DNA of 63,119 nt from NCBI RefSeq assembly GCF_056746865.1, contig NZ_JBWKMP010000006.1. One strand, 5' to 3'. The translations under genes were made by a program, and so were the position numbers. The notes under the pieces were generated by a model. The model ran no database searches, was not told where the DNA came from, and worked only from the letters and a program-made list of their open reading frames with translations. The DNA is from a plasmid. Shown here piece by piece: positions 2,428 through 60,901 of the stretch. Numbering within the stretch: position 1 is the first letter of the stretch; every line of letters begins with the position of its first letter.

Positions 2428-2928
2428 ATGTCTGTTGTTGCACCTGCTGTATACGTTGGAACCTGGCACAAATACAACTGTGGAAGCATCGCCGGACGCT
2501 GGTTTGACCTGACCACGTTTGATGATGAGCGCGACTTTTTCGCCGCCTGCCGTGCTCTTCACCAGGATGAAGCCGATCCTGAACTGATGTTTCAGGATTA
2601 TGAGGGATTCCCGGGGAATATGGCCTCTGAATGCCATATCAACTGGGCCTGGGTTGAAGGCTTCCGCCAGGCACGGGATGAAGGCTGCGAAGAGGCTTAT
2701 CGTCTCTGGGTGGATGATACCGGTGAGACGGATTTTGACACCTTCCGCGATGCCTGGTGGGGCGAGGCTGACAGTGAGGAGGCTTTTGCGGTTGAGTTCG
2801 TCAGTGATACCGGCCTGCTGGCTGACGTGCCGGAGACGGTGGCGCTCTATTTTGACTATGAGGCGTATGCGCGGGATTTATTCCTGGACTCCTTCACCTT
2901 TATTGACGGTCATGTGTTCCGTCGGTGA
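2428..2928 (+). CDS. ardA: ArdA antirestriction protein (anti type I restriction-modification)
   Basis: 166-aa acidic product [62 protein letters not shown]... matches ArdA as recalled; GGAGGA Shine-Dalgarno before ATG 2428. Confidence 0.92.
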
Positions 2929-3294
2929 TTTACTCCCCCGCTCCGGCGGGGGTATGGCCTGCCAGGCCGCCGGAAAACCCTGGCAGGCTTACGCCTGCCT
3001 GAAATGCAGGAGGGCCGCGCCTGCGGCGCTGCCCTTCCTGCCCGTCATGGTGTGAGGCATTTTTCTGTTATGTCGTTTCTGTTGTTCTGATTTCCGGAGG
3101 CGGGGACACCTTCGGCTCCCGGCTGCCTGGCGGCATCCGGTCGTCAGGCCCGACTCCGACAGGCAGCTGCTGGCGCACCCGCCAGTCTCCGCCGAACCCG
3201 CTGGCGCGGTTTCGGGCTGCCGCTACGGTCCGATGTCTGAAAAACCAGGCTTGCAGCGACCGTTCCGGTCGCGCCGCCCCTGTCGCGCCGGAAA

Positions 3295-3640
3295 CGGCGC
3301 TCCCTGCACACCTGACGGTGTGTAAGGCCACTGCGCCTGATGGCGCAGTCAACCCTTCCGCCGCCACCCCTGCGGCCTGTTTCCCGCTGTGGACTTTCCG
3401 GGGGCTGGAGTAACCACATCCCGTTTCAGCAGTCCAGGGGAAGATATACCGTCCACAAAATTTTTAGCCATAAACCCGGCAAAAAATTTTGCGTCCGCCC
3501 CGGACAGCTGCCCCGTGACGTGGTGACGGACGCCCCATCGGAAAGGTCCACTGCGGGGAGAAACCCCGAAGAAGTGGACGGCAGAAGGGGCTTTCGCCCC
3601 TCCGGGGAGCAACCGGTCGGCCCGGCGACCTGATTCAGCA
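3295..3640 (+). repeat. Frpo/ssi-like element, copy 1 (candidate single-stranded-DNA promoter)
   Basis: ~345-bp GC-rich non-coding block, about 80 percent identical over its length to 6172-6520 and beginning with the shared core CGGCGCTCCCTGCACACCT...GTGTAAGGCCACTGCGCCTGATGGCGCAG; ends just before ORF 3656. Confidence 0.5.
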
Positions 3641-3655
3641 GAAGGAGACGTTTTC

Positions 3656-4090
3656 ATGACAGTCAGCAGCACGATTTCCGTTTTTTGCCGCGACGGGGTG
3701 TTCCGTACCGTTTACTGCCACCTGCACGGTGAGCCGACCTGGAACGGTCGCATCCTGCATACCCACTATGCCACCGGTCAGCAGGCCGAAGCCCTGGTTG
3801 AACACGGTGATATCCGTTGCCTCGGTCCCCGTTGCGACAAACCCGCCGGGCATACGCTTCAGAACCCGGTGGACGGTGTGACGGCTTATTACGGACGTGA
3901 CAGTGGTTTCCGGATGGACAGTGAGGCGCGTGAGTACCGTTCTTTCAGGGAGGCTATTGCCACTGAAAGCACTGAAGAGGTGCGCTTCCATTATGTGTTC
4001 ATCGACGGCTACTGGAAGGTGATGTACCGCACGCCGGAAGGCTGGAAGATGAAAGCGCTCGCGCTGGCACTGCGTCGCTGTCCGGAATGA
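3656..4090 (+). CDS. hypothetical Cys/His-containing leading-region protein
   Basis: 144-aa ORF with AGGAGA Shine-Dalgarno, immediately downstream of Frpo-like copy 1; terminator follows. Confidence 0.7.
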   Translation: MTVSSTISVFCRDGVFRTVYCHLHGEPTWNGRILHTHYATGQQAEALVEHGDIRCLGPRCDKPAGHTLQNPVDGVTAYYGRDSGFRMDSEAREYRSFREAIATESTEEVRFHYVFIDGYWKVMYRTPEGWKMKALALALRRCPE

Positions 4091-4120
4091 AAAAAAGCAG
4101 GGCGATAAACCCTGCCTTTC
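4091..4120 (+). terminator. rho-independent terminator
   Basis: Stem GCAGGG / CCCTGC (4097-4115) followed by CTTTC. Confidence 0.5.
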
Positions 4121-4182
4121 TCCGCTGGCGCTTCCCCGTACGGAAGTCCGGCATCTCATTCACTAACTATGGAGATTATGCC

Positions 4183-4449
4183 ATGAGACCATCAATTATC
4201 TTCGCAACCGCCGAGTATGTAAAGCGTCTGCGTGAAGAGTGCCTGCGGGAGAATAAACCCCTGCACCGCCATACCCGCTTCAGACGTCAGGAGCTGGCAC
4301 AGGATGAGATTAACCCGGACGTCCTGGCGATGAGCGGCCATATCGCCAGACGCTGCAGTGAGCAGAAGCGGGTGCGTATCCCCGCCATGAAAGTCAGCGA
4401 ATGGGGCCACCTGCTCCGCGCGCTTGAAATTGAGCGGGTCTGCCACTGA
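4183..4449 (+). CDS. hypothetical small leading-region protein
   Basis: 88-aa ORF from ATG 4183 with GGAG 8 nt upstream; the ORF-track start at 4087 is an upstream extension. Confidence 0.55.
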   Translation: MRPSIIFATAEYVKRLREECLRENKPLHRHTRFRRQELAQDEINPDVLAMSGHIARRCSEQKRVRIPAMKVSEWGHLLRALEIERVCH

Positions 4450-4513
4450 TTAACCCTTGCCGTCTGCCTGTGCAGGCGGCAGGATACGTTCAGACATCTC
4501 ACCAGGAGGAACC

Positions 4514-5428
4514 GTGAGTAAGAAGAAAAACACCACAACGCCCACGCCGCATGATGCCGCGTTCCGGTCGTTCCTGGCGAATCCCGACGTCGCCAGAGAT
4601 TTTCTGGAACTGCATCTTCCGGCGGAGTACCGGCAGTTGTGCGACCTGTCCACGCTGAAGCTGGAACCCGCCACCTTTGTTGAGCCGGACCTGCATCAGT
4701 ACGCCAGCGATATCCTCTGGAGCGTGAAAACCACCGGGGGTGAAGATGGCTATGTTTATACGCTCATCGAGCACCAGAGCACCGAAAATCTGTACATGCC
4801 TTTCCGCATGTTACGTTACAGTGTGGCGGCGATGCAGAGACATCTGGAGCAGCACAAAACGTTGCCACTGGTGATTCCTGTACTGTTCTATCATGGTGAG
4901 CGCAGCCCGTACCCGTACAGCATGAACTGGCTGGACTGTTTTGAGAATCCGGCACTTGCGGCTAAAATATACACAAAGCCGTTTCCGCTGGTTGATATCA
5001 CTGTCGTTGATGACAATGAAATCATGAACCATCGCCGGATGGCCGCACTGACGCTGCTGATGAAGCATATCCGCCATCGTGACATGATGGAGCTGCTGGA
5101 CAAACTCCCGCAGGTCATGGTGGAAATTTCAGACGAGCAGGTGCGTGTTCTGATTCATTACATCGTTAACGCAGGGGACTCTGTATCACCGGAATTTATG
5201 CGGGCGCTGGCTGAGCGTCTGCCGCAGCATGAGGATAAACTGATGACTATCGCAGAACGTCTTGAGCAAAAAGGTCGCCAGGAAGGCAGGATGGAAGGAC
5301 GCATGGAAGGAGCGCTTGAAAAAGCCCTGGCTATTGCGTGCCAGCTTCAGAAAATGGGGATGACGCCGGAGCAGATTAAGCAGGCTACCGGACTTTCCGA
5401 TGACGAACTGAAGAAAATCACTCACTGA
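4514..5428 (+). CDS. Rpn family recombination-promoting nuclease (YhgA-like, PD-(D/E)XK)
   Basis: Product ...PTPHDAAFRSFLANPDVARDFLELHLP...YTLIEHQSTENLYMPFRMLRY...PLVIPVLFYHGERSPYP... closely resembles E. coli YhgA/Rpn proteins as recalled; AGGAGGA Shine-Dalgarno before GTG 4514. Confidence 0.85.
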   Translation: MSKKKNTTTPTPHDAAFRSFLANPDVARDFLELHLPAEYRQLCDLSTLKLEPATFVEPDLHQYASDILWSVKTTGGEDGYVYTLIEHQSTENLYMPFRMLRYSVAAMQRHLEQHKTLPLVIPVLFYHGERSPYPYSMNWLDCFENPALAAKIYTKPFPLVDITVVDDNEIMNHRRMAALTLLMKHIRHRDMMELLDKLPQVMVEISDEQVRVLIHYIVNAGDSVSPEFMRALAERLPQHEDKLMTIAERLEQKGRQEGRMEGRMEGALEKALAIACQLQKMGMTPEQIKQATGLSDDELKKITH

Positions 5429-5440
5429 TGAGAACCACAA

Positions 5441-5467
5441 AGCCCGGCAAAATGCCGGGCTTTTTTG
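5441..5467 (+). terminator. rho-independent terminator after rpn
   Basis: AGCCCGGCA-AAAT-GCCGGGCT stem-loop followed by TTTTTT. Confidence 0.6.
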
Positions 5468-5490
5468 TCAGCAGGAGCAGAGCAAACAGC

Positions 5491-5673
5491 ATGACGATTG
5501 CAGAACGTCTTATACAGAAAGGTTTCGACGAGGGTTTTAAACAAGGGGCTCTTGAAGTGGCGCGGGAAATAGCCTGCCGGCTTCGGGATATAGGCTGGCC
5601 GCCGGAACGGATTCAGGAGGTCACGGGACTTTCCGGTGAAGAACTGAAAAAGCTGTTTCCTGATGAGCAGTAG
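5491..5673 (+). CDS. small stand-alone paralogue of the Rpn C-terminal domain (RpnS-like)
   Basis: 60-aa ORF MTIAERLIQKGFDEGFKQGALEVAREIACRLRDIGWPPERIQEVTGLSGEELKK... with AGGAGCAG Shine-Dalgarno; aligns with the last ~60 aa of the upstream Rpn (MTIAERLEQKG...TGLSDDELKK). Confidence 0.6.
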   Translation: MTIAERLIQKGFDEGFKQGALEVAREIACRLRDIGWPPERIQEVTGLSGEELKKLFPDEQ

Positions 5674-5703
5674 CCTGGCATTCAGCCAGGCTGTGAATCA
5701 CGC

Positions 5704-5955
5704 TCACACATCCTCTGCCGTTTCCCCCAGTTCATTTTCCAGTCGCCTGATGATATCTGCCTTACGCATCCCCTGCATGTGAGGCAGCAGGTCACGGACT
5801 GAAAGTGCCTGGGTGGTCCTCCAGACGGTGACGTCCACCTGTTCCGCATTTTCCCAGGCGTGCCATGTTCTCTGCGTCACGCCAAATTCTCTGGCCGCTT
5901 TTTCGCGTGACCAGAGCATGCTTTTTCGCCAGATTCGCAGTTCCCAGCCGGTCAT
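5704..5955 (-). CDS. small helix-turn-helix DNA-binding regulator (XRE/Cro-like)
   Basis: 83-aa ORF with an HTH-like segment SREKAAREFGVTQRTWHAWE; AAGGTG Shine-Dalgarno; divergent from Frpo-like copy 2. Confidence 0.6.
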   Translation of the reverse strand: MTGWELRIWRKSMLWSREKAAREFGVTQRTWHAWENAEQVDVTVWRTTQALSVRDLLPHMQGMRKADIIRRLENELGETAEDV

Positions 5956-5966
5956 AAAACACCTTT

Positions 5967-6060
5967 GAAAAAGTGAAAAAACTTCACTTTATTTTATCAT
6001 CACAATTGCCAAATCAGCGCGATAAATAAGTGTAAAAAAGTGAAGAAATTTCACTTTTTT
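5967..6060. promoter_or_regulatory. two AGTGAA-N-TTCACT palindromes (candidate operators) in the promoter region of the HTH gene
   Basis: AAAGTGAAAAAACTTCACTTT (5969-5990) and AAAAAGTGAAGAAATTTCACTTTTT (6035-6060), AT-rich, directly upstream of the - strand HTH gene. Confidence 0.4.
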
Positions 6061-6171
6061 TGCTTGTAAATGTCGTGCGGTTTTCTCTGTTTTCACCTGT
6101 GCGGGAGTGGTGTGCCAGTGACCACCACATGCCATTGTTGTGCCGTCGTTTTTCTTCAGTCGCGCCGTATG

Positions 6172-6520
6172 CGGCGCTCCCTGCACACCTTACGGTGTGT
6201 AAGGCCACTGCGCCTGATGGCGCAGCTGTCTCTGCCTGTCTGCCGCCGCACTGCGGCCTGTTCTCCGCAGACGGACTTTCCGGGGGTACATACATGACCA
6301 CATCCCGTTTCAGTCGTCCAGGGGGGAGATGTACCAGCCACAAAACTTTTTGCCGCAGGCGTCAAAAACTTTTGCGTCTGCCCCCGGACAACTGCCCCGT
6401 GACGTGGTGAGCGTCCCCCGTCGGAAAGGTCCACTGCGGGGAAATCCCCGAAGACCCGGACGGCAGAAGGAGCTTCGCTCCTCCGGGAAATGACCTGGCT
6501 GTCCCGGCAGTCGTGACGAT
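6172..6520 (+). repeat. Frpo/ssi-like element, copy 2 (candidate single-stranded-DNA promoter)
   Basis: Homologous to 3295-3640 (same 5-prime core and shared downstream blocks such as CTGCCCCGTGACGTGGTGA and GGAAAGGTCCACTGCGGGGA); ends at the Shine-Dalgarno of ORF 6535. Confidence 0.5.
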
Positions 6521-6534
6521 GAGGAGACAATGTG

Positions 6535-7383
6535 ATGAATCAGACTTTACCCACTGCTGACCTGAATACTGCCGGCACGACAGATGTTATTCCGTCTGTG
6601 GCTATCGACCGCATCATCGCGCAGCGTAACGAAGGTATTGCACTGTTCATGCAGGCGATGGAATGCCTGGCGACAGCGCGCAAGATTCTGCTCGATGCGT
6701 CAGGTGATATTTTTCTTTACGGGTTTGAAGACTGCGTGACTGATTCCGTTCGTCGCATAGATAAACCGGAAGAAGCGAAAAGGAATATCACCCGTCTTGC
6801 CGACCGGAAAATCTGGGACCGCCTGATGACAGATACGGGCATGTACACCTTCATGAGTTCATGCCAGCGTGATGAGTGGAACAGCCAGCTGATGAGCGAC
6901 ACCTGTCCTGAAATCACCCTGGACAATGTACTGGCAACATTCCGCCATCTGAATGCCTGCAAGATGCAGACATTTGAACAGGGACTGATTGATGTCTACC
7001 GGAAATTGTCATGGGATTACAGAACCAATAATCCCTGCCGTCTGGGTAAGAAAATCATTATTGAAAACCTGCTGTACCGCTGGAGTAACGGGCGTGTGAC
7101 GCTGGACTGCAGCGGACGGGAGGCACTGGATGACCTGGTACGTCCGTTTTATCTGCTGGAGGGGCGCAACGTTCCTGACTTCAGGAACAGTATCGGGGCG
7201 CAGTATGGTGAATTTCTCGGGAACGGCGACAATGTCGGTAAGCTGTTAGAAGGGGAATATTTTACGGTGCGTGGCTACCAGAAAGGGACCGTACACATTG
7301 TCTTTAAGCGTTCTGACCTTGTTGAAAAACTGAATGATATTATTGCACGGCATTATCCAGGTGCATTGCCGCCACGAGTCTGA
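6535..7383 (+). CDS. hypothetical leading-region protein (family guess: DUF4942-like)
   Basis: ~282-aa ORF with GAGGAGA Shine-Dalgarno, directly downstream of Frpo-like copy 2; the family assignment is from memory only. Confidence 0.7.
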   Translation: MNQTLPTADLNTAGTTDVIPSVAIDRIIAQRNEGIALFMQAMECLATARKILLDASGDIFLYGFEDCVTDSVRRIDKPEEAKRNITRLADRKIWDRLMTDTGMYTFMSSCQRDEWNSQLMSDTCPEITLDNVLATFRHLNACKMQTFEQGLIDVYRKLSWDYRTNNPCRLGKKIIIENLLYRWSNGRVTLDCSGREALDDLVRPFYLLEGRNVPDFRNSIGAQYGEFLGNGDNVGKLLEGEYFTVRGYQKGTVHIVFKRSDLVEKLNDIIARHYPGALPPRV

Positions 7384-7859: not shown

Positions 7860-8030
7860 CCTGGCAGGGCTGCGCCCTGCCTCTGCCGTCTGCATAAGAC
7901 TATGATGCACAAAAATAACAGGCTATAATGGCCAAAATCGGGGCAGGATGTGGGAATGTCGGACCGCGCACGCTCGCTCAGACATTCCCCACCTGGTCAG
8001 GGCTGCGCCCCGACACCCCGTAAGGAGCTG
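7860..8030. other. oriT: oriT region (origin of transfer), candidate nic site
   Basis: Directly upstream of nikA; inverted repeat GGCAGGGCTGCGCCCTGCC (7863-7881); 9-bp inverted repeat GGGAATGTC...GACATTCCC (7952-7989); IncP-like ATCCTG motif on the - strand at 7944-7949; second GGTCAGGGCTGCGCCCCGAC copy at 7995-8014. Confidence 0.55.
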
Positions 8031-15696: not shown

Positions 15697-15869
15697 GACA
15701 AAGTCTCCATTTCTGGAATTTAAATCAAACGGAAAGGTTAAAAATTTATTTGCAGGCGATAAGAGCTAACCAGAGGAATTAGCCGTGTGATAAAAGGATT
15801 GTTGCAGATACGAAAGTCGTTAGAATAGCTGCGGGCGCTTGAGGCTGTATGCCGAAAGCGTTTTGTGGA

Positions 15870-15935
15870 CGGTATACAGCAGAAAGCCCCAGGCGATTTT
15901 TTTATCAATCAACCAAGGGCTCTACTGTAATGCCT
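15870..15935 (-). ncRNA. pndB: candidate PndB (Sok-like) antisense RNA
   Basis: - strand promoter-like TTGCCT-N17-TACTATAAT (15977-15943) directed across the pndC translation-initiation region; boundaries are approximate. Confidence 0.3.
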
Positions 15936-16133
15936 AGACAACATTATAGTAGCCCGATAACCGCCGTAAGGCAATGGAGGGGCTATGATGCCACAGCGAA
16001 CGTTTTTAATGATGTTAATCGTCGTCTGTGTGACGATTCTGTGTTTTGTCTGGATGGTGAGGGATTCGCTTTGCGGACTCCGGCTCCAGCAGGGAAACAC
16101 AGTGCTTGTGGCAACGTTAGCCTACGAAGTTAA
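15930..16133 (+). CDS. pndC: PndC (Mok-like overlapping reading frame)
   Basis: ATG 15930 frame MPRQHYSSPITAVRQWRGYDATANVF... overlaps pndA in a different frame, as in hok/mok. Confidence 0.5.
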   Translation: MPRQHYSSPITAVRQWRGYDATANVFNDVNRRLCDDSVFCLDGEGFALRTPAPAGKHSACGNVSLRS

Positions 16134-16463: not shown

Positions 16464-16614
16464 CGGATTTTCTCTCTGTATTTATGGGTAGTTATCGAAC
16501 TGAATGTGCCAGTTTTTTCAGGAGACGGCAAAGTTGAGATGATTGGTTCTGATTCAGAGCATGAGTTTCCCGGTGTGACGGGCATGTCGGGCGGATTTTG
16601 AGAAACAACAGATG

Positions 16615-16646
16615 TAAAAAAACCGACTGGTGAGGTCGGTTTTTTT
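16615..16646. terminator. bidirectional rho-independent terminator
   Basis: A7-ACCGAC-TGGTGAG-GTCGGT-T6. Confidence 0.55.
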
Positions 16647-16770
16647 ACTGTTCCGTTACAGAGTGGGTGGCTCTGACCGGAGGTCTATAACTGACGCTAA
16701 AAATGATAATTTGTTCTAACTGATTAATGTTCATGCCATAAGTTTACGGGAAAGGCTGACCACCTGATAT

Positions 16771-39755: not shown

Positions 39756-39962
39756 AATAATTCCTGAGCAGTTAAATCAGAATGGGATATACCGGTGCTC
39801 CGGTACAGACAGGATGATGTTTGTTTCCGGCTATACTTGCGTTACCGGAAATAAATGCCAGTGTGGCCAGGTAAATAGCCTCATAGTTTACTGAAGGTGA
39901 TTATTCCTGATACTGGCTGGTTGATGTGTCGTCAGACATAAAACGAATATGAGCGTAATCTT

Positions 39963-40110
39963 TAACGCTCCGCGCCGAATCGATCCATGATGGATGACTC
40001 GACGATTTATGAATCGAACGTACCGGCGCTTGTCCCTGAAACAGTTCCCGGCCCTCGTCCGGATAACCTGCAATTCAGACAGGCACATGTGCCCGTACAC
40101 TCTTGTATCT
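39963..40110 (-). repeat. conserved leader module E1 (family of three) upstream of traH
   Basis: ~150 nt with conserved ends shared with 59013-59165 and 60075-60230 (5-prime TAACGCTCCGCGCCGAATCGATCCATGATGGA, 3-prime CCTCGTCCGGATAACCTGCAATTCAGACAGGCACATG) and a divergent middle. Confidence 0.5.
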
Positions 40111-59006: not shown

Positions 59007-59012
59007 GAAGTT

Positions 59013-59165
59013 CAACGCTCCGCGCAAAACCGATCCATGATGGACGATTTTGCGATGTCAGGCGAATATGCTAAATCATATGTCTGAAGCAGTGTCCAGC
59101 CCATATCTGGATAAACTGCAGTTCTGACAGGCATATAACCAGCAGACTCTAGTACGTTCTGTATC
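59013..59165 (-). repeat. conserved leader module E2 upstream of and abutting the traB start
   Basis: Same conserved ends as E1 and E3; the - strand end GCGCGGAGCGTTGAA runs into the traB initiation region. Confidence 0.5.
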
Positions 59166-59735: not shown

Positions 59736-60074
59736 AGCAAAGGTCTCCGATGACAACTAAAAACGCTATCACTGAGTTCCTACGCTCATTGGTGATAGCC
59801 CAGACGGGGGTAGGAATACCGGCGTCATCGGAAACCGGCCAGGCTAATGCCTGCCCCGCCTGAGCTACCATAGATGACGACAAGAAATACAAGTTCCTGT
59901 CTTTATGGTATGGCAAAAAACGACGCCAAATGAAGAAATTAACTTCTGCGCCGACGATGACTACGCGGGTTCCTACGCCCGATCACAGTTTTGCCTGTGA
60001 CCAGTAAAGGGTACTTAGTATAACGCACCGAGTCAACTAACAGCTTAAAAAACATACAAAAAAGCGTCAAAACT

Positions 60075-60230
60075 TAACGCTCCGCGCCGAAGCGATCCAG
60101 GCGTGATGCTTCTGCTTTGTGGCGTTCGAACATGCTGGTCCATATGCACGAAACGGTGTCTGACCCTCGTCCAGACAATCCGCAGTTCTGACGAACATAT
60201 GAACAAATATGCTCTTGTAGAGGCTGTTGT
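60075..60230 (-). repeat. conserved leader module E3 upstream of traA
   Basis: Same conserved ends as E1 and E2 (TAACGCTCCGCGCCGAAGCGATCCAGG...CCTCGTCCAGACAATCCGCAGTTCTGACGAACATATG). Confidence 0.5.
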
Positions 60231-60721: not shown

Positions 60722-60797
60722 CCATAAAAGGAAAACCCCCACTATCTTTCTTACGAACTTGGCGGAACGACGAAAGATAGTGGGGGCCTCACAGAAT
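60722..60797 (-). ncRNA. inc: Inc antisense RNA (copy-number control of repZ)
   Basis: Perfect 15-bp stem (60736-60750 / 60772-60786) with loop containing TTGGCG (60759-60764); - strand promoter TTGAAT-N17-TATACT (60832-60806) and T-rich tail after the stem. Confidence 0.55.
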
Positions 60798-60811
60798 ACG
60801 GGTAAAGTATA

Positions 60812-60901
60812 ATGAAACCGTACCAGAGATTCAACCCTGTGCAGTGTATAAATACACGGCACAATCGCTCCGCCATAAGCGACAGCTTGTGGCAGGTCTG
60901 A
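60812..60901 (+). CDS. repY: RepY leader peptide
   Basis: 29-codon ORF MKPYQRFNPVQCINTRHNRSAISDSLWQV ending at TGA 60899-60901, overlapping the repZ start. Confidence 0.65.
   Translation: MKPYQRFNPVQCINTRHNRSAISDSLWQV

Follow-up and report, generated by a model that had tools for sequence, protein, structure and literature searches.

Two repeats in a plasmid leading region correspond to ssi2 and ssi1, very probable single-stranded-DNA promoters on the transferred strand

The window, a stretch of 63,119 nucleotides of plasmid DNA that was analysed as a whole, contains two copies of a long GC-rich repeat (blocks A and B). Comparison with published plasmids led to their assignment as ssi2 and ssi1, which with high probability act as single-stranded-DNA (ssDNA) promoters on the transferred strand:

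3282..3606, minus (transferred) strand: ssi2 (block A), class 1 (Frpo-type) ssDNA promoter element, 99.4% identical to ColIb-P9 ssi2 (AJ238399:4353-4678)
6159..6487, minus strand: ssi1 (block B), class 1 ssDNA promoter element, the copy nearest oriT, 98.8% identical to ColIb-P9 ssi1 (AJ238399:1459-1787)

The ColIb-P9 reference sequences were those of a supplementary table in Samuel et al. 2024. Identity to pESBL-EA11 was 99.7% for positions 3270-3660 and 98.7% for positions 6150-6540. The function given for the blocks is carried over from published elements that differ from them by 0.3-1.3%; sequence identity, strand, position, fold stability and covariation were determined in this analysis. 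ColIb-P9, R64 and pESBL-EA11 have essentially the same ssi1 and ssi2 sequences (98.7-99.7%, a few point differences) and share with the window the order relative to oriT, the distance between ssi1 and the nick (1458 nt) and the downstream genes. The ssi2 unit of pESBL differs in that one additional 129-aa ORF, absent from the window, separates the 88-aa gene from the Rpn gene. The near-identity to ssi2 and ssi1 of ColIb-P9 and to the class 1 elements of pESBL-EA11 supports the reading of an earlier note on this DNA, which took the blocks for "Frpo/ssi-like" ssDNA promoters. The label named the right kind of element, but missed that these very elements have had names and descriptions in the literature since 1999. 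As promoters the blocks were already known: the observation was correct and adds nothing beyond published work (1997-2026).

BLAST aligned 3282-3606 with 6159-6487 at 81-82% identity over ~330 nt (E ~1e-80), and when 3270-3660 and 6150-6540 were aligned as a pair, the mean column identity was 86%. The GC content of the blocks is 62.7% (A) and 62.5% (B), compared to 49.7% window-wide. The PGAP annotation of pESBL-EA11 has no CDS inside either block. Short or N-terminally extended ORFs are called across the blocks in some other records; these are probably spurious, since the DNA is so GC-rich. The description of the blocks as long, GC-rich, non-coding and homologous was thus borne out. Their limits, previously given as 3295-3640 and 6172-6520, were right in location, but fell ~13 nt short on the left and overran the homology by ~35 nt on the right: the last 35-50 nt preceding each ribosome-binding site are copy-specific and not shared between the blocks. 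Also as claimed, each block stands directly upstream of a plus strand gene with a ribosome-binding site. Block A is followed by AGGAG and an ATG at 3656, block B by GAGGAG and an ATG at 6535. The minus strand between the two blocks carries an HTH gene (5704-5955).

The window holds these two copies of the block and no others; related plasmids have a third, upstream of ssb. This third copy falls just outside the window, whose start lies near psiB. Dispersed copies that are 14-19% divergent, with two to four similar copies per plasmid, would also suit selfish or neutral repeats (MITE-like, REP-like or a duplication scar) that play no role in expression. We give this explanation practically no chance, because in thousands of plasmids the copies keep a fixed orientation and position, always directly upstream of a leading-strand gene, because they have neither terminal inverted repeats nor target duplications, and because their stem is kept by compensatory substitutions (see below).

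The strand assignment rests on the position of oriT. A repZ pseudoknot was found in the window (Rfam), and the gene order psiB-psiA-ardA...nikA-nikB agrees with that of IncI1 relatives; judged by these sequence features, the window is an IncI1 plasmid. A pattern match located the nick region (slash, nick):

7943..7950, minus strand: oriT nick-region motif CATCCTG/C, in the MobC-like/nikA intergenic region, upstream of nikA

In relatives nikA and nikB are annotated downstream of this motif. The position of the nick within the motif is presumably that established for MOBP oriT sites. With the motif on the minus strand, it is this strand that is transferred and that serves as template for the downstream genes. 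The leading region extends toward lower coordinates, and the blocks are found 1.4 and 4.3 kb from the nick, on its leading side. Measured from the start of ssi1 to the nick motif, the distance of 1458 nt agrees with the ColIb-P9 coordinate.

Folding the minus strand as DNA yielded -108.2 kcal/mol (z -9.2) for 3285-3655 and -110.2 kcal/mol (z -9.6) for 6162-6534, and none of 100 shuffles was as stable as the fold of either block. The transferred strand of both blocks is thus very stably folded, as the earlier note had expected. The folds contained the following elements:

3353..3589, minus strand: main imperfect hairpin of ssi2, with the apical loop near 3470-3477 flanked by a 10-bp A/T duplex
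6227..6470, minus strand: main hairpin region of ssi1 in the DNA fold
3285..3349, minus strand: three short GC-rich stem-loops at the 3' end of the ssi2 element, present in the folds of both copies and partly conserved in F

Of all segments, the region of the three stem-loops differs least from one copy to the other (94% identity over 67 nt). Overall, the transferred strand was 9-16 kcal/mol more stable than its complement, a difference that is due to G-T pairs; for the hairpins it amounted to 9.4 kcal/mol (ssi2) and 14 kcal/mol (ssi1). Stable folds were also obtained for the plus strand (-99 and -94 kcal/mol), therefore an RNA copy would be structured, and the hairpin of a transcript reading through from upstream genes might terminate transcription, be a site of processing or serve as a translational leader. 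Such action at the RNA level is very improbable. It is the transferred strand that is the more stable one, Rfam has no matching family for either block, on the plus strand the hairpin is not followed by a T-run, and the published start sites lie inside the elements.

Conservation of the stem was assessed with 11 elements from IncI, IncK, IncF, Serratia, insect-metagenome and Salmonella sources, by direct counting of pairs on the block A fold and by an alignment-fold run with RNA parameters. Pairing was possible in 72.9% of the cells, compared to 43-51% in slid controls, and 39 pairs had changes on both sides. The covariation score was 0.263, whereas the controls gave at most 0.132 and none of 500 shuffles reached 0.263. 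RNAalifold with DNA parameters, applied to a MAFFT alignment, returned almost no structure.

Candidate promoter elements could be located in the hairpins:

3431..3436, minus strand: TGGACT, candidate -35 box of ssi2, on the non-template (3') arm of the hairpin
6315..6320, minus strand: TGGACG, candidate -35 box of ssi1, at the position homologous to 3431-3436
3404..3413, minus strand: TTACTC/TACTCC, candidate -10 region of ssi2, running into a 4x4 internal loop, 17-18 nt past the -35-like box
3441..3449, minus strand: 9-nt bulge GTATATCTT on the non-template arm, family motif GTnCATnT

TGGACT at 3431-3436 may act as a -35 box: CCCTGGAC is base-paired and conserved across IncI and IncF relatives, with the variants TGGACA, TAGACA and TTGGAT. 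TTACTC/TACTCC is the putative -10 element. It resembles TATAAT weakly (2-3/6), and its spacing from the -35-like box varies among relatives, with ~3 nt extra in F Frpo2; an internal loop of 3-5 nt is found at this position in nearly all of them. The folds of ssi2, ssi1, the IncK2/Z copy, F Frpo1/2 and the Salmonella relatives all leave the 9-nt bulge unpaired, and its columns are nearly invariant. The relatives thus have a common architecture of a paired -35-like box, an unpaired bulge and an internal loop. Transcription would start near 3533-3537 and 6414-6418 on the plus strand, with an uncertainty of ~35 nt created by an alternative arrangement, in which a -10-like TATATC in the 9-nt bulge is combined with a -35-like TGGCTA beside the loop. 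Both arrangements came from a relaxed sigma-70 scan and both are consistent with the alignment. The earlier note had suggested a -35/-10 pair that is created solely in the hairpin. Such a pair is not cleanly visible, and of the two boxes just the -35-like one is clearly conserved. The transferred strand contains the candidate hexamers already in its linear form; what the hairpin adds is the duplex and the link to the template arm that leads toward the gene.

In a strict sigma-70 scan that covered 2900-6600, neither strand of either block yielded a promoter. This speaks against ordinary double-stranded promoters with operators, which would be repressed in the donor by a plasmid protein and derepressed after transfer (classical zygotic induction). 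Repressor-controlled, repeated long upstream regions do occur with ArdK/ArdR of pKM101 and Reg576 of p576 (PMC6294495), and the HTH gene between the blocks would be in keeping with such control. Nevertheless, we consider it highly unlikely: the dominant feature of the blocks is a covarying 240-nt hairpin, which an operator array does not need, induction is prolonged where ssDNA persists (PMC12672017), and the ColIb-P9 work, as conveyed by summaries of Bates 1999, argues for orientation dependence and independence of a repressor.

The following mechanism is proposed for the ssDNA promoters. Conjugation would carry the minus strand into the recipient from the nick near 7943 onward, with the 5' end leading. 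Each block, while single-stranded, would fold into a long imperfect hairpin of ~240 nt, whose stem would mimic duplex promoter DNA. Outward from the apical loop, the 3' arm would present the A/T-rich tract, the -35-like TGGACN and, ~17-18 nt on, the partly unpaired -10 region. Host sigma-70 RNA polymerase would bind the stem, using the 5' arm as template, and transcription would leave through the base of the hairpin into the genes, from ssi2 into the 144-aa gene and its neighbours, and from ssi1 into ydiA (DUF4942). Synthesis of the complementary strand would abolish the hairpin and switch the promoter off, so that the new host would experience a brief burst of expression.

The evidence for ssDNA-dependent transcription and the mapping of start sites come from the literature on near-identical elements. 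Six leading-region operons of pESBL-EA11 were induced up to ~500-fold 15 min after transfer (RNA-seq), start sites mapped by 5'RACE were within the elements, and ssi1-3 formed the strongest class of pESBL ssDNA promoters; in a uvrD recipient, where ssDNA persists, induction lasted longer (Wen et al. 2025, PMC12672017). Activity as ssDNA, silence as dsDNA and transient expression in new transconjugants were reported for these pESBL elements and for Frpo1/2 of F. Promoters of this kind explain how a conjugative plasmid can express protective genes before the second DNA strand exists, and such early expression is central to the establishment of IncI and IncF resistance plasmids in new hosts.

The ssi transcripts probably also prime synthesis of the complementary strand. 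If this were the main role of the hairpins, they would be ssi sites at which a short RNA made by RNA polymerase is extended by DNA polymerase III, so that the incoming strand becomes duplex, and expression would be a by-product. The name ssi derives from a priming assay, Frpo RNA is reported to persist as an RNA-DNA hybrid and to prime DNA synthesis in vitro (PMC7690428), and in F early rifampicin-sensitive conversion events were reported in vivo near the ssp1/Frpo promoters (2026 preprint). A mainly priming role is nonetheless improbable. Each element is followed directly by a ribosome-binding site and a correctly oriented gene, the downstream genes are induced up to ~500-fold in pESBL (PMC12672017), and deletion of Frpo abolishes production of the downstream proteins in F. 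Priming would therefore be an added function of the ssDNA promoters rather than an alternative one.

The earlier note had also proposed an alignment to the elements of F and ColIb; the blocks match the ColIb ssi elements, and Frpo of F over a central core. ssi3 of ColIb-P9, which is 83-87% identical to the blocks over the whole element and shares the hairpin architecture, has homology to block A that extends ~340 nt further upstream (window 2957-3294). It differs by its position upstream of ssb, where it drives ssb-yfhA-psiB-psiA, and it is not within the window. ssi3 is reportedly the copy for which Nasim et al. 2004 carried out in vitro tests. Frpo1 (ssiD) and Frpo2 of F (= ssp1a/ssp1b; Masai and Arai 1997, Couturier et al. 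2023) are elements of the same kind with the same logic of position. A central core of ~110 nt is 74-78% identical (A/T-tract apex, GTnCATnT bulge, CCCTGGAC) and the stem covaries with that of the blocks, whereas the lower stem and the flanks cannot be aligned and the genes are different (ygeA/ygeB and ssb-psiB). The class 2 and class 3 ssDNA promoters of pESBL and F (ssp2, ssp3) follow the same principle, a transferred-strand hairpin with promoter boxes, but have no sequence similarity to the blocks. The window has one of these:

2068-2420: class 2 ssDNA promoter copy, upstream of ardA

The boxes of class 2 (TTGCAT-15-TAAGAT) are clearer than those of the blocks. The annotation of the window thus gains two of the three class 1 ssDNA promoters and one of class 2. 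In F the class 2 element doubles as a replication roadblock (2026 preprint).

Hairpins of ssDNA that host RNA polymerase reads as promoter-like duplex are also found in the sso of rolling-circle plasmids and in the minus-strand origin of filamentous phages. The ssDNA promoters were likened to such single-strand origins in PMC7690428. The latter differ in that they make primer RNA alone and drive no protein-coding genes, and their sequences are unrelated to the blocks.

The promoters mark a set of early-expressed genes, several of which have no known function:

3656..4090, plus strand: 144-aa uncharacterised protein, first gene after ssi2 (the database name 'PndC' is a misnomer)
4183..4449, plus strand: 88-aa hypothetical protein, annotated in relatives
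4514..5428, plus strand: Rpn-family recombination-promoting nuclease / putative transposase (TIGR01784, 181.9 bits, cutoff 52.1)
6535..7383, plus strand: YdiA, DUF4942 (Pfam, E 3e-50), sole gene downstream of ssi1

The name 'PndC' was rejected for the 144-aa protein, as 12 kb separate its gene from the Hok/Sok-type locus (Rfam sok, 15833-15990), to which the protein has no similarity. The family of this protein has no Pfam entry; it comprises ~2000 clusters at 50% identity from bacteria, archaea and phages, with conserved His, Tyr, Arg and Asp residues. Its structural model (pLDDT 96.5) had no solved structural relative. The 88-aa gene, possibly part of the ssi2 transcription unit, encodes a protein that matched no family.

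The AlphaFold model of YdiA has a pLDDT of 86.6 and had no Foldseek match in the PDB at E<=0.001. The 'methyltransferase' label that DUF4942 has in some sources is unsupported; where YdiA aligns with a 548-aa phage 'DNA methyltransferase' family, the alignment is confined to the N-terminal half of the latter. Sequence searches of the PDB with the 144-aa protein and YdiA returned nothing. It is reasonable to regard the downstream genes as early-expressed candidates for anti-defence or establishment functions, as the earlier note did and as the literature had already proposed. That the 144-aa protein and/or YdiA represents a novel type of factor for anti-defence or establishment, acting in the first minutes after DNA entry, is a tentative idea that we think somewhat unlikely. 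YdiA is the first gene to enter the recipient. Supplementary file 3 of Samuel et al. lists 2171 members of the DUF4942/YdiA family, and we read its column values as placing YdiA at ORF position 1 from oriT.

The region of both blocks consists of + strand genes in series, broken by two long GC-rich gaps. Pairwise alignment of 3270-3660 with 6150-6540 gave 86% mean column identity, and BLAST placed the homologous cores at 3282-3606 (block A) and 6159-6487 (block B, the copy closest to oriT), with 81-82% identity and E about 1e-80. The GC content of the blocks is 62.7% and 62.5%, compared with 49.7% window-wide. On the 3′ side of each block 35-50 unique bases lead up to a Shine-Dalgarno sequence, with the start codons at 3656 and 6535. 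The two homologous GC-rich repeats ahead of + strand genes described in the earlier note are thus real; only their boundaries had to be slightly corrected, to those of the cores. Self-search found no third copy within the 63-kb window; the third copy of related plasmids lies upstream of ssb, just beyond it. Copies with at least 80% identity occur in 2050 records of a plasmid collection, mostly in three places each among the records listed.

The blocks, read on the minus strand, were compared with the reference elements that Samuel et al. 2024 tabulate in their supplement. Identity to ColIb-P9 ssi2 ('Frpo2' in the table) is 99.4% for block A, and identity to ColIb-P9 ssi1 ('Frpo1') is 98.8% for block B. 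Identity of ssi3 to both blocks is 83-87%, whereas F ssiD/Frpo can be aligned only over a central core of ~110 nt (74-78%). The IncI1 relative pESBL-EA11 matches 3270-3660 at 99.7% and 6150-6540 at 98.7%; it is among the IncI1/Igamma plasmids to which the first 8 kb of the window show 97-99% identity. At 60728-60876 Rfam located the repZ pseudoknot that is typical of IncI replicons. The blocks are the IncI1 elements ssi2 and ssi1, published as single-stranded DNA promoters, and the suggestion that they are promoters of the Frpo/ssi type was right.

These elements are already known, their sequence since 1999 and their function through work up to 2025-26. According to reviews and recent papers, Masai and Arai (1997) showed that F Frpo forms a stem-loop which sigma-70 RNA polymerase uses as an ssDNA promoter and from which primer RNA is also made. 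Three dispersed Frpo homologues, ssi1-3, were described in the ColIb-P9 leading region (Bates et al. 1999), and the activity of one ColIb-P9 single-stranded promoter is reported to depend on its secondary structure (Nasim et al. 2004). The IncI leading region comprises three operons transcribed from ssi3-1 (Benz and Hall 2023). Deletion of F Frpo1 or Frpo2 abolished early production of downstream proteins in vivo (Couturier et al. 2023). In fresh pESBL-EA11 transconjugants six leading-region operons were up ~500-fold at most at 15 min, start sites were mapped by 5′RACE, and ssi1-3 were the strongest promoters, 'class 1'; a uvrD recipient, in which ssDNA persists, showed prolonged induction (Wen et al. 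2025, PMC12672017). This body of work supports the interpretation; the promoters themselves offer no new ground.

Block A is preceded by psiB, psiA, a hypothetical gene and ardA. Between the blocks lie genes for a 144-aa protein, an 88-aa protein and an Rpn-family nuclease, a 60-aa ORF and, on the other strand, an HTH gene. Block B is followed by a DUF4942 gene, a MobC-like gene (other strand), nikA, nikB and trbC. The features discussed below are:

3353-3589, minus strand, main imperfect hairpin of block A, dominant feature of the ssDNA fold
3656-4090, gene for the 144-aa protein, 'PndC' in databases
4514-5428, gene for the Rpn-family nuclease, ssi2 region
6535-7383, + strand, gene for YdiA, a DUF4942 protein, the single gene after ssi1
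7943-7950, minus strand, MOBP-type nick motif CATCCTG|C upstream of nikA (motif match)

The nick motif adjoins a characteristic GC-rich inverted repeat. As it lies on the minus strand upstream of nikA, this is the transferred strand; its entry is 5′ first, in the direction of lower coordinates, and it serves as template for all these + strand genes. The motif is 1458 nt from the start of block B, in agreement with the published ColIb-P9 ssi1 coordinate AJ238399:1459 (Samuel et al. 2024, supplementary table).

Folded as ssDNA, the transferred strand is very stable in both blocks: -108.2 kcal/mol (z -9.2) for block A and -110.2 kcal/mol (z -9.6) for block B, values equalled by 0/100 shuffles in each case. 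The complement is 9-16 kcal/mol less stable, owing to G-T pairing at several positions in the stem. Besides the main hairpin, block A has three small GC-rich stem-loops at its distal end. The hairpin was projected on an alignment of 11 elements (IncI1, IncK2/Z, F, pSLT, Serratia, insect metagenome and Salmonella); with this structure, derived from one alignment member, 72.9% of cells pair, compared with 43-51% for slid partners. In 39 pairs both sides are altered, and the covariation score (0.263; controls <=0.132) was reached by 0/500 shuffles. In the mid-stem helix 89% of cells pair and 8 of the 12 pairs changed on both sides. RNAalifold agreed with the covariation.

The hairpin apex is a small loop inside a 10-bp A/T duplex. 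From there down the 3′ (non-template) arm follow:

1, unpaired, conserved 9-nt bulge GTATATCTT, family motif GTnCATnT
2, paired, conserved CCCTGGAC, candidate -35
3, largely paired spacer
4, internal loop of 3-5 nt, 17-18 nt past the -35-like box in ssi2, the expected -10 position

Each family variant of CCCTGGAC (TGGACA, TAGACA, TTGGAT) preserves another portion of TTGACA, so that this motif is a good candidate for the -35. We infer a layout in which the A/T tract occupies the UP-element position. The putative -10 hexamers (TTACTC/TACTCC, TCATGT) match the consensus poorly, and a second possible arrangement would use the -10-like TATATC, which sits in the bulge. A scan of both strands found no strict sigma-70 consensus promoter in either block, which is consistent with silence as duplex DNA and means that the boxes cannot be fixed from sequence alone. 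With the -10 in the internal loop, transcription would be templated by the 5′ arm, leave via the stem base and start near + strand 3533-3537 (ssi2) and 6414-6418 (ssi1), giving leaders of ~120 nt.

The YdiA gene enters the recipient first. The 'methyltransferase' label given to YdiA by some sources is unsupported, since Foldseek found no significant PDB match for its model (pLDDT 86.6). YdiA aligns with a 548-aa phage 'DNA methyltransferase' family (phrog_6263) over the N-terminal half of that family; it is probably not a methyltransferase but an accessory domain. 'PndC' is a misnomer: the 144-aa protein belongs to a large family without a Pfam entry (PHROG_1987; ~2000 clusters at 50% identity), in which Y20, H22, G25, H66, Y79, R81, D82, Y113 and W120 are conserved. 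Its very confident model has no solved structural relative. The 60-aa ORF (5491-5673) after the Rpn gene is separate from it and repeats, in diverged form, the C-terminal ~55 residues of Rpn proteins (TIGR01784 positions 219-273); a 75% DNA repeat (5243-5286 / 5491-5534) links the two. Antitoxins of Rpn toxins that consist of a small C-terminal piece of Rpn have been described.

Upstream of ardA (2428-2928), a distinct repeated non-coding element (2068-2420) shares 94-95% identity with the sequence upstream of the klcA/ardB-like antirestriction gene in pESBL-EA11, pFORC44_1 and F. Its transferred strand forms a long hairpin (z -4.0) bearing TTGCAT-15-TAAGAT, the -10 partly inside a mismatch bubble. 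It agrees with ssp2, the 'class 2' ssDNA promoter of the literature, at which synthesis of the complementary strand is also stalled in F. The 365-nt non-coding stretch between ardA and ssi2 (2929-3294; 67% GC) folds well as ssDNA (z -5.8). Related plasmids have a further copy of it upstream of ssi3 (82-90% identity), so that the unit repeated at ssi2 and ssi3 is ~2x the length of the one repeated at ssi1 and ssi2. The AT-rich stretch 5960-6060, situated between ssi1 and the HTH gene of the minus strand (5704-5955), contains two GTGAA...TTCAC inverted repeats, AAAGTGAAAAAACTTCACTTT and AAAGTGAAGAAATTTCACTTTTT, which look like operators for the HTH regulator; at 5973-6000 the promoter scan gave a weak promoter-like site.

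Elsewhere in the window Rfam matched sok antitoxin RNA (15833-15990, the true pnd/Hok-type locus), AgrB antisense RNA (16614-16694, beside a DinQ-like toxin in relatives) and C4 antisense RNA (59788-59875). A 46-nt direct repeat has three copies with 74-80% identity (39961-40006, 59011-59056, 60073-60118), two of which flank the replication region.
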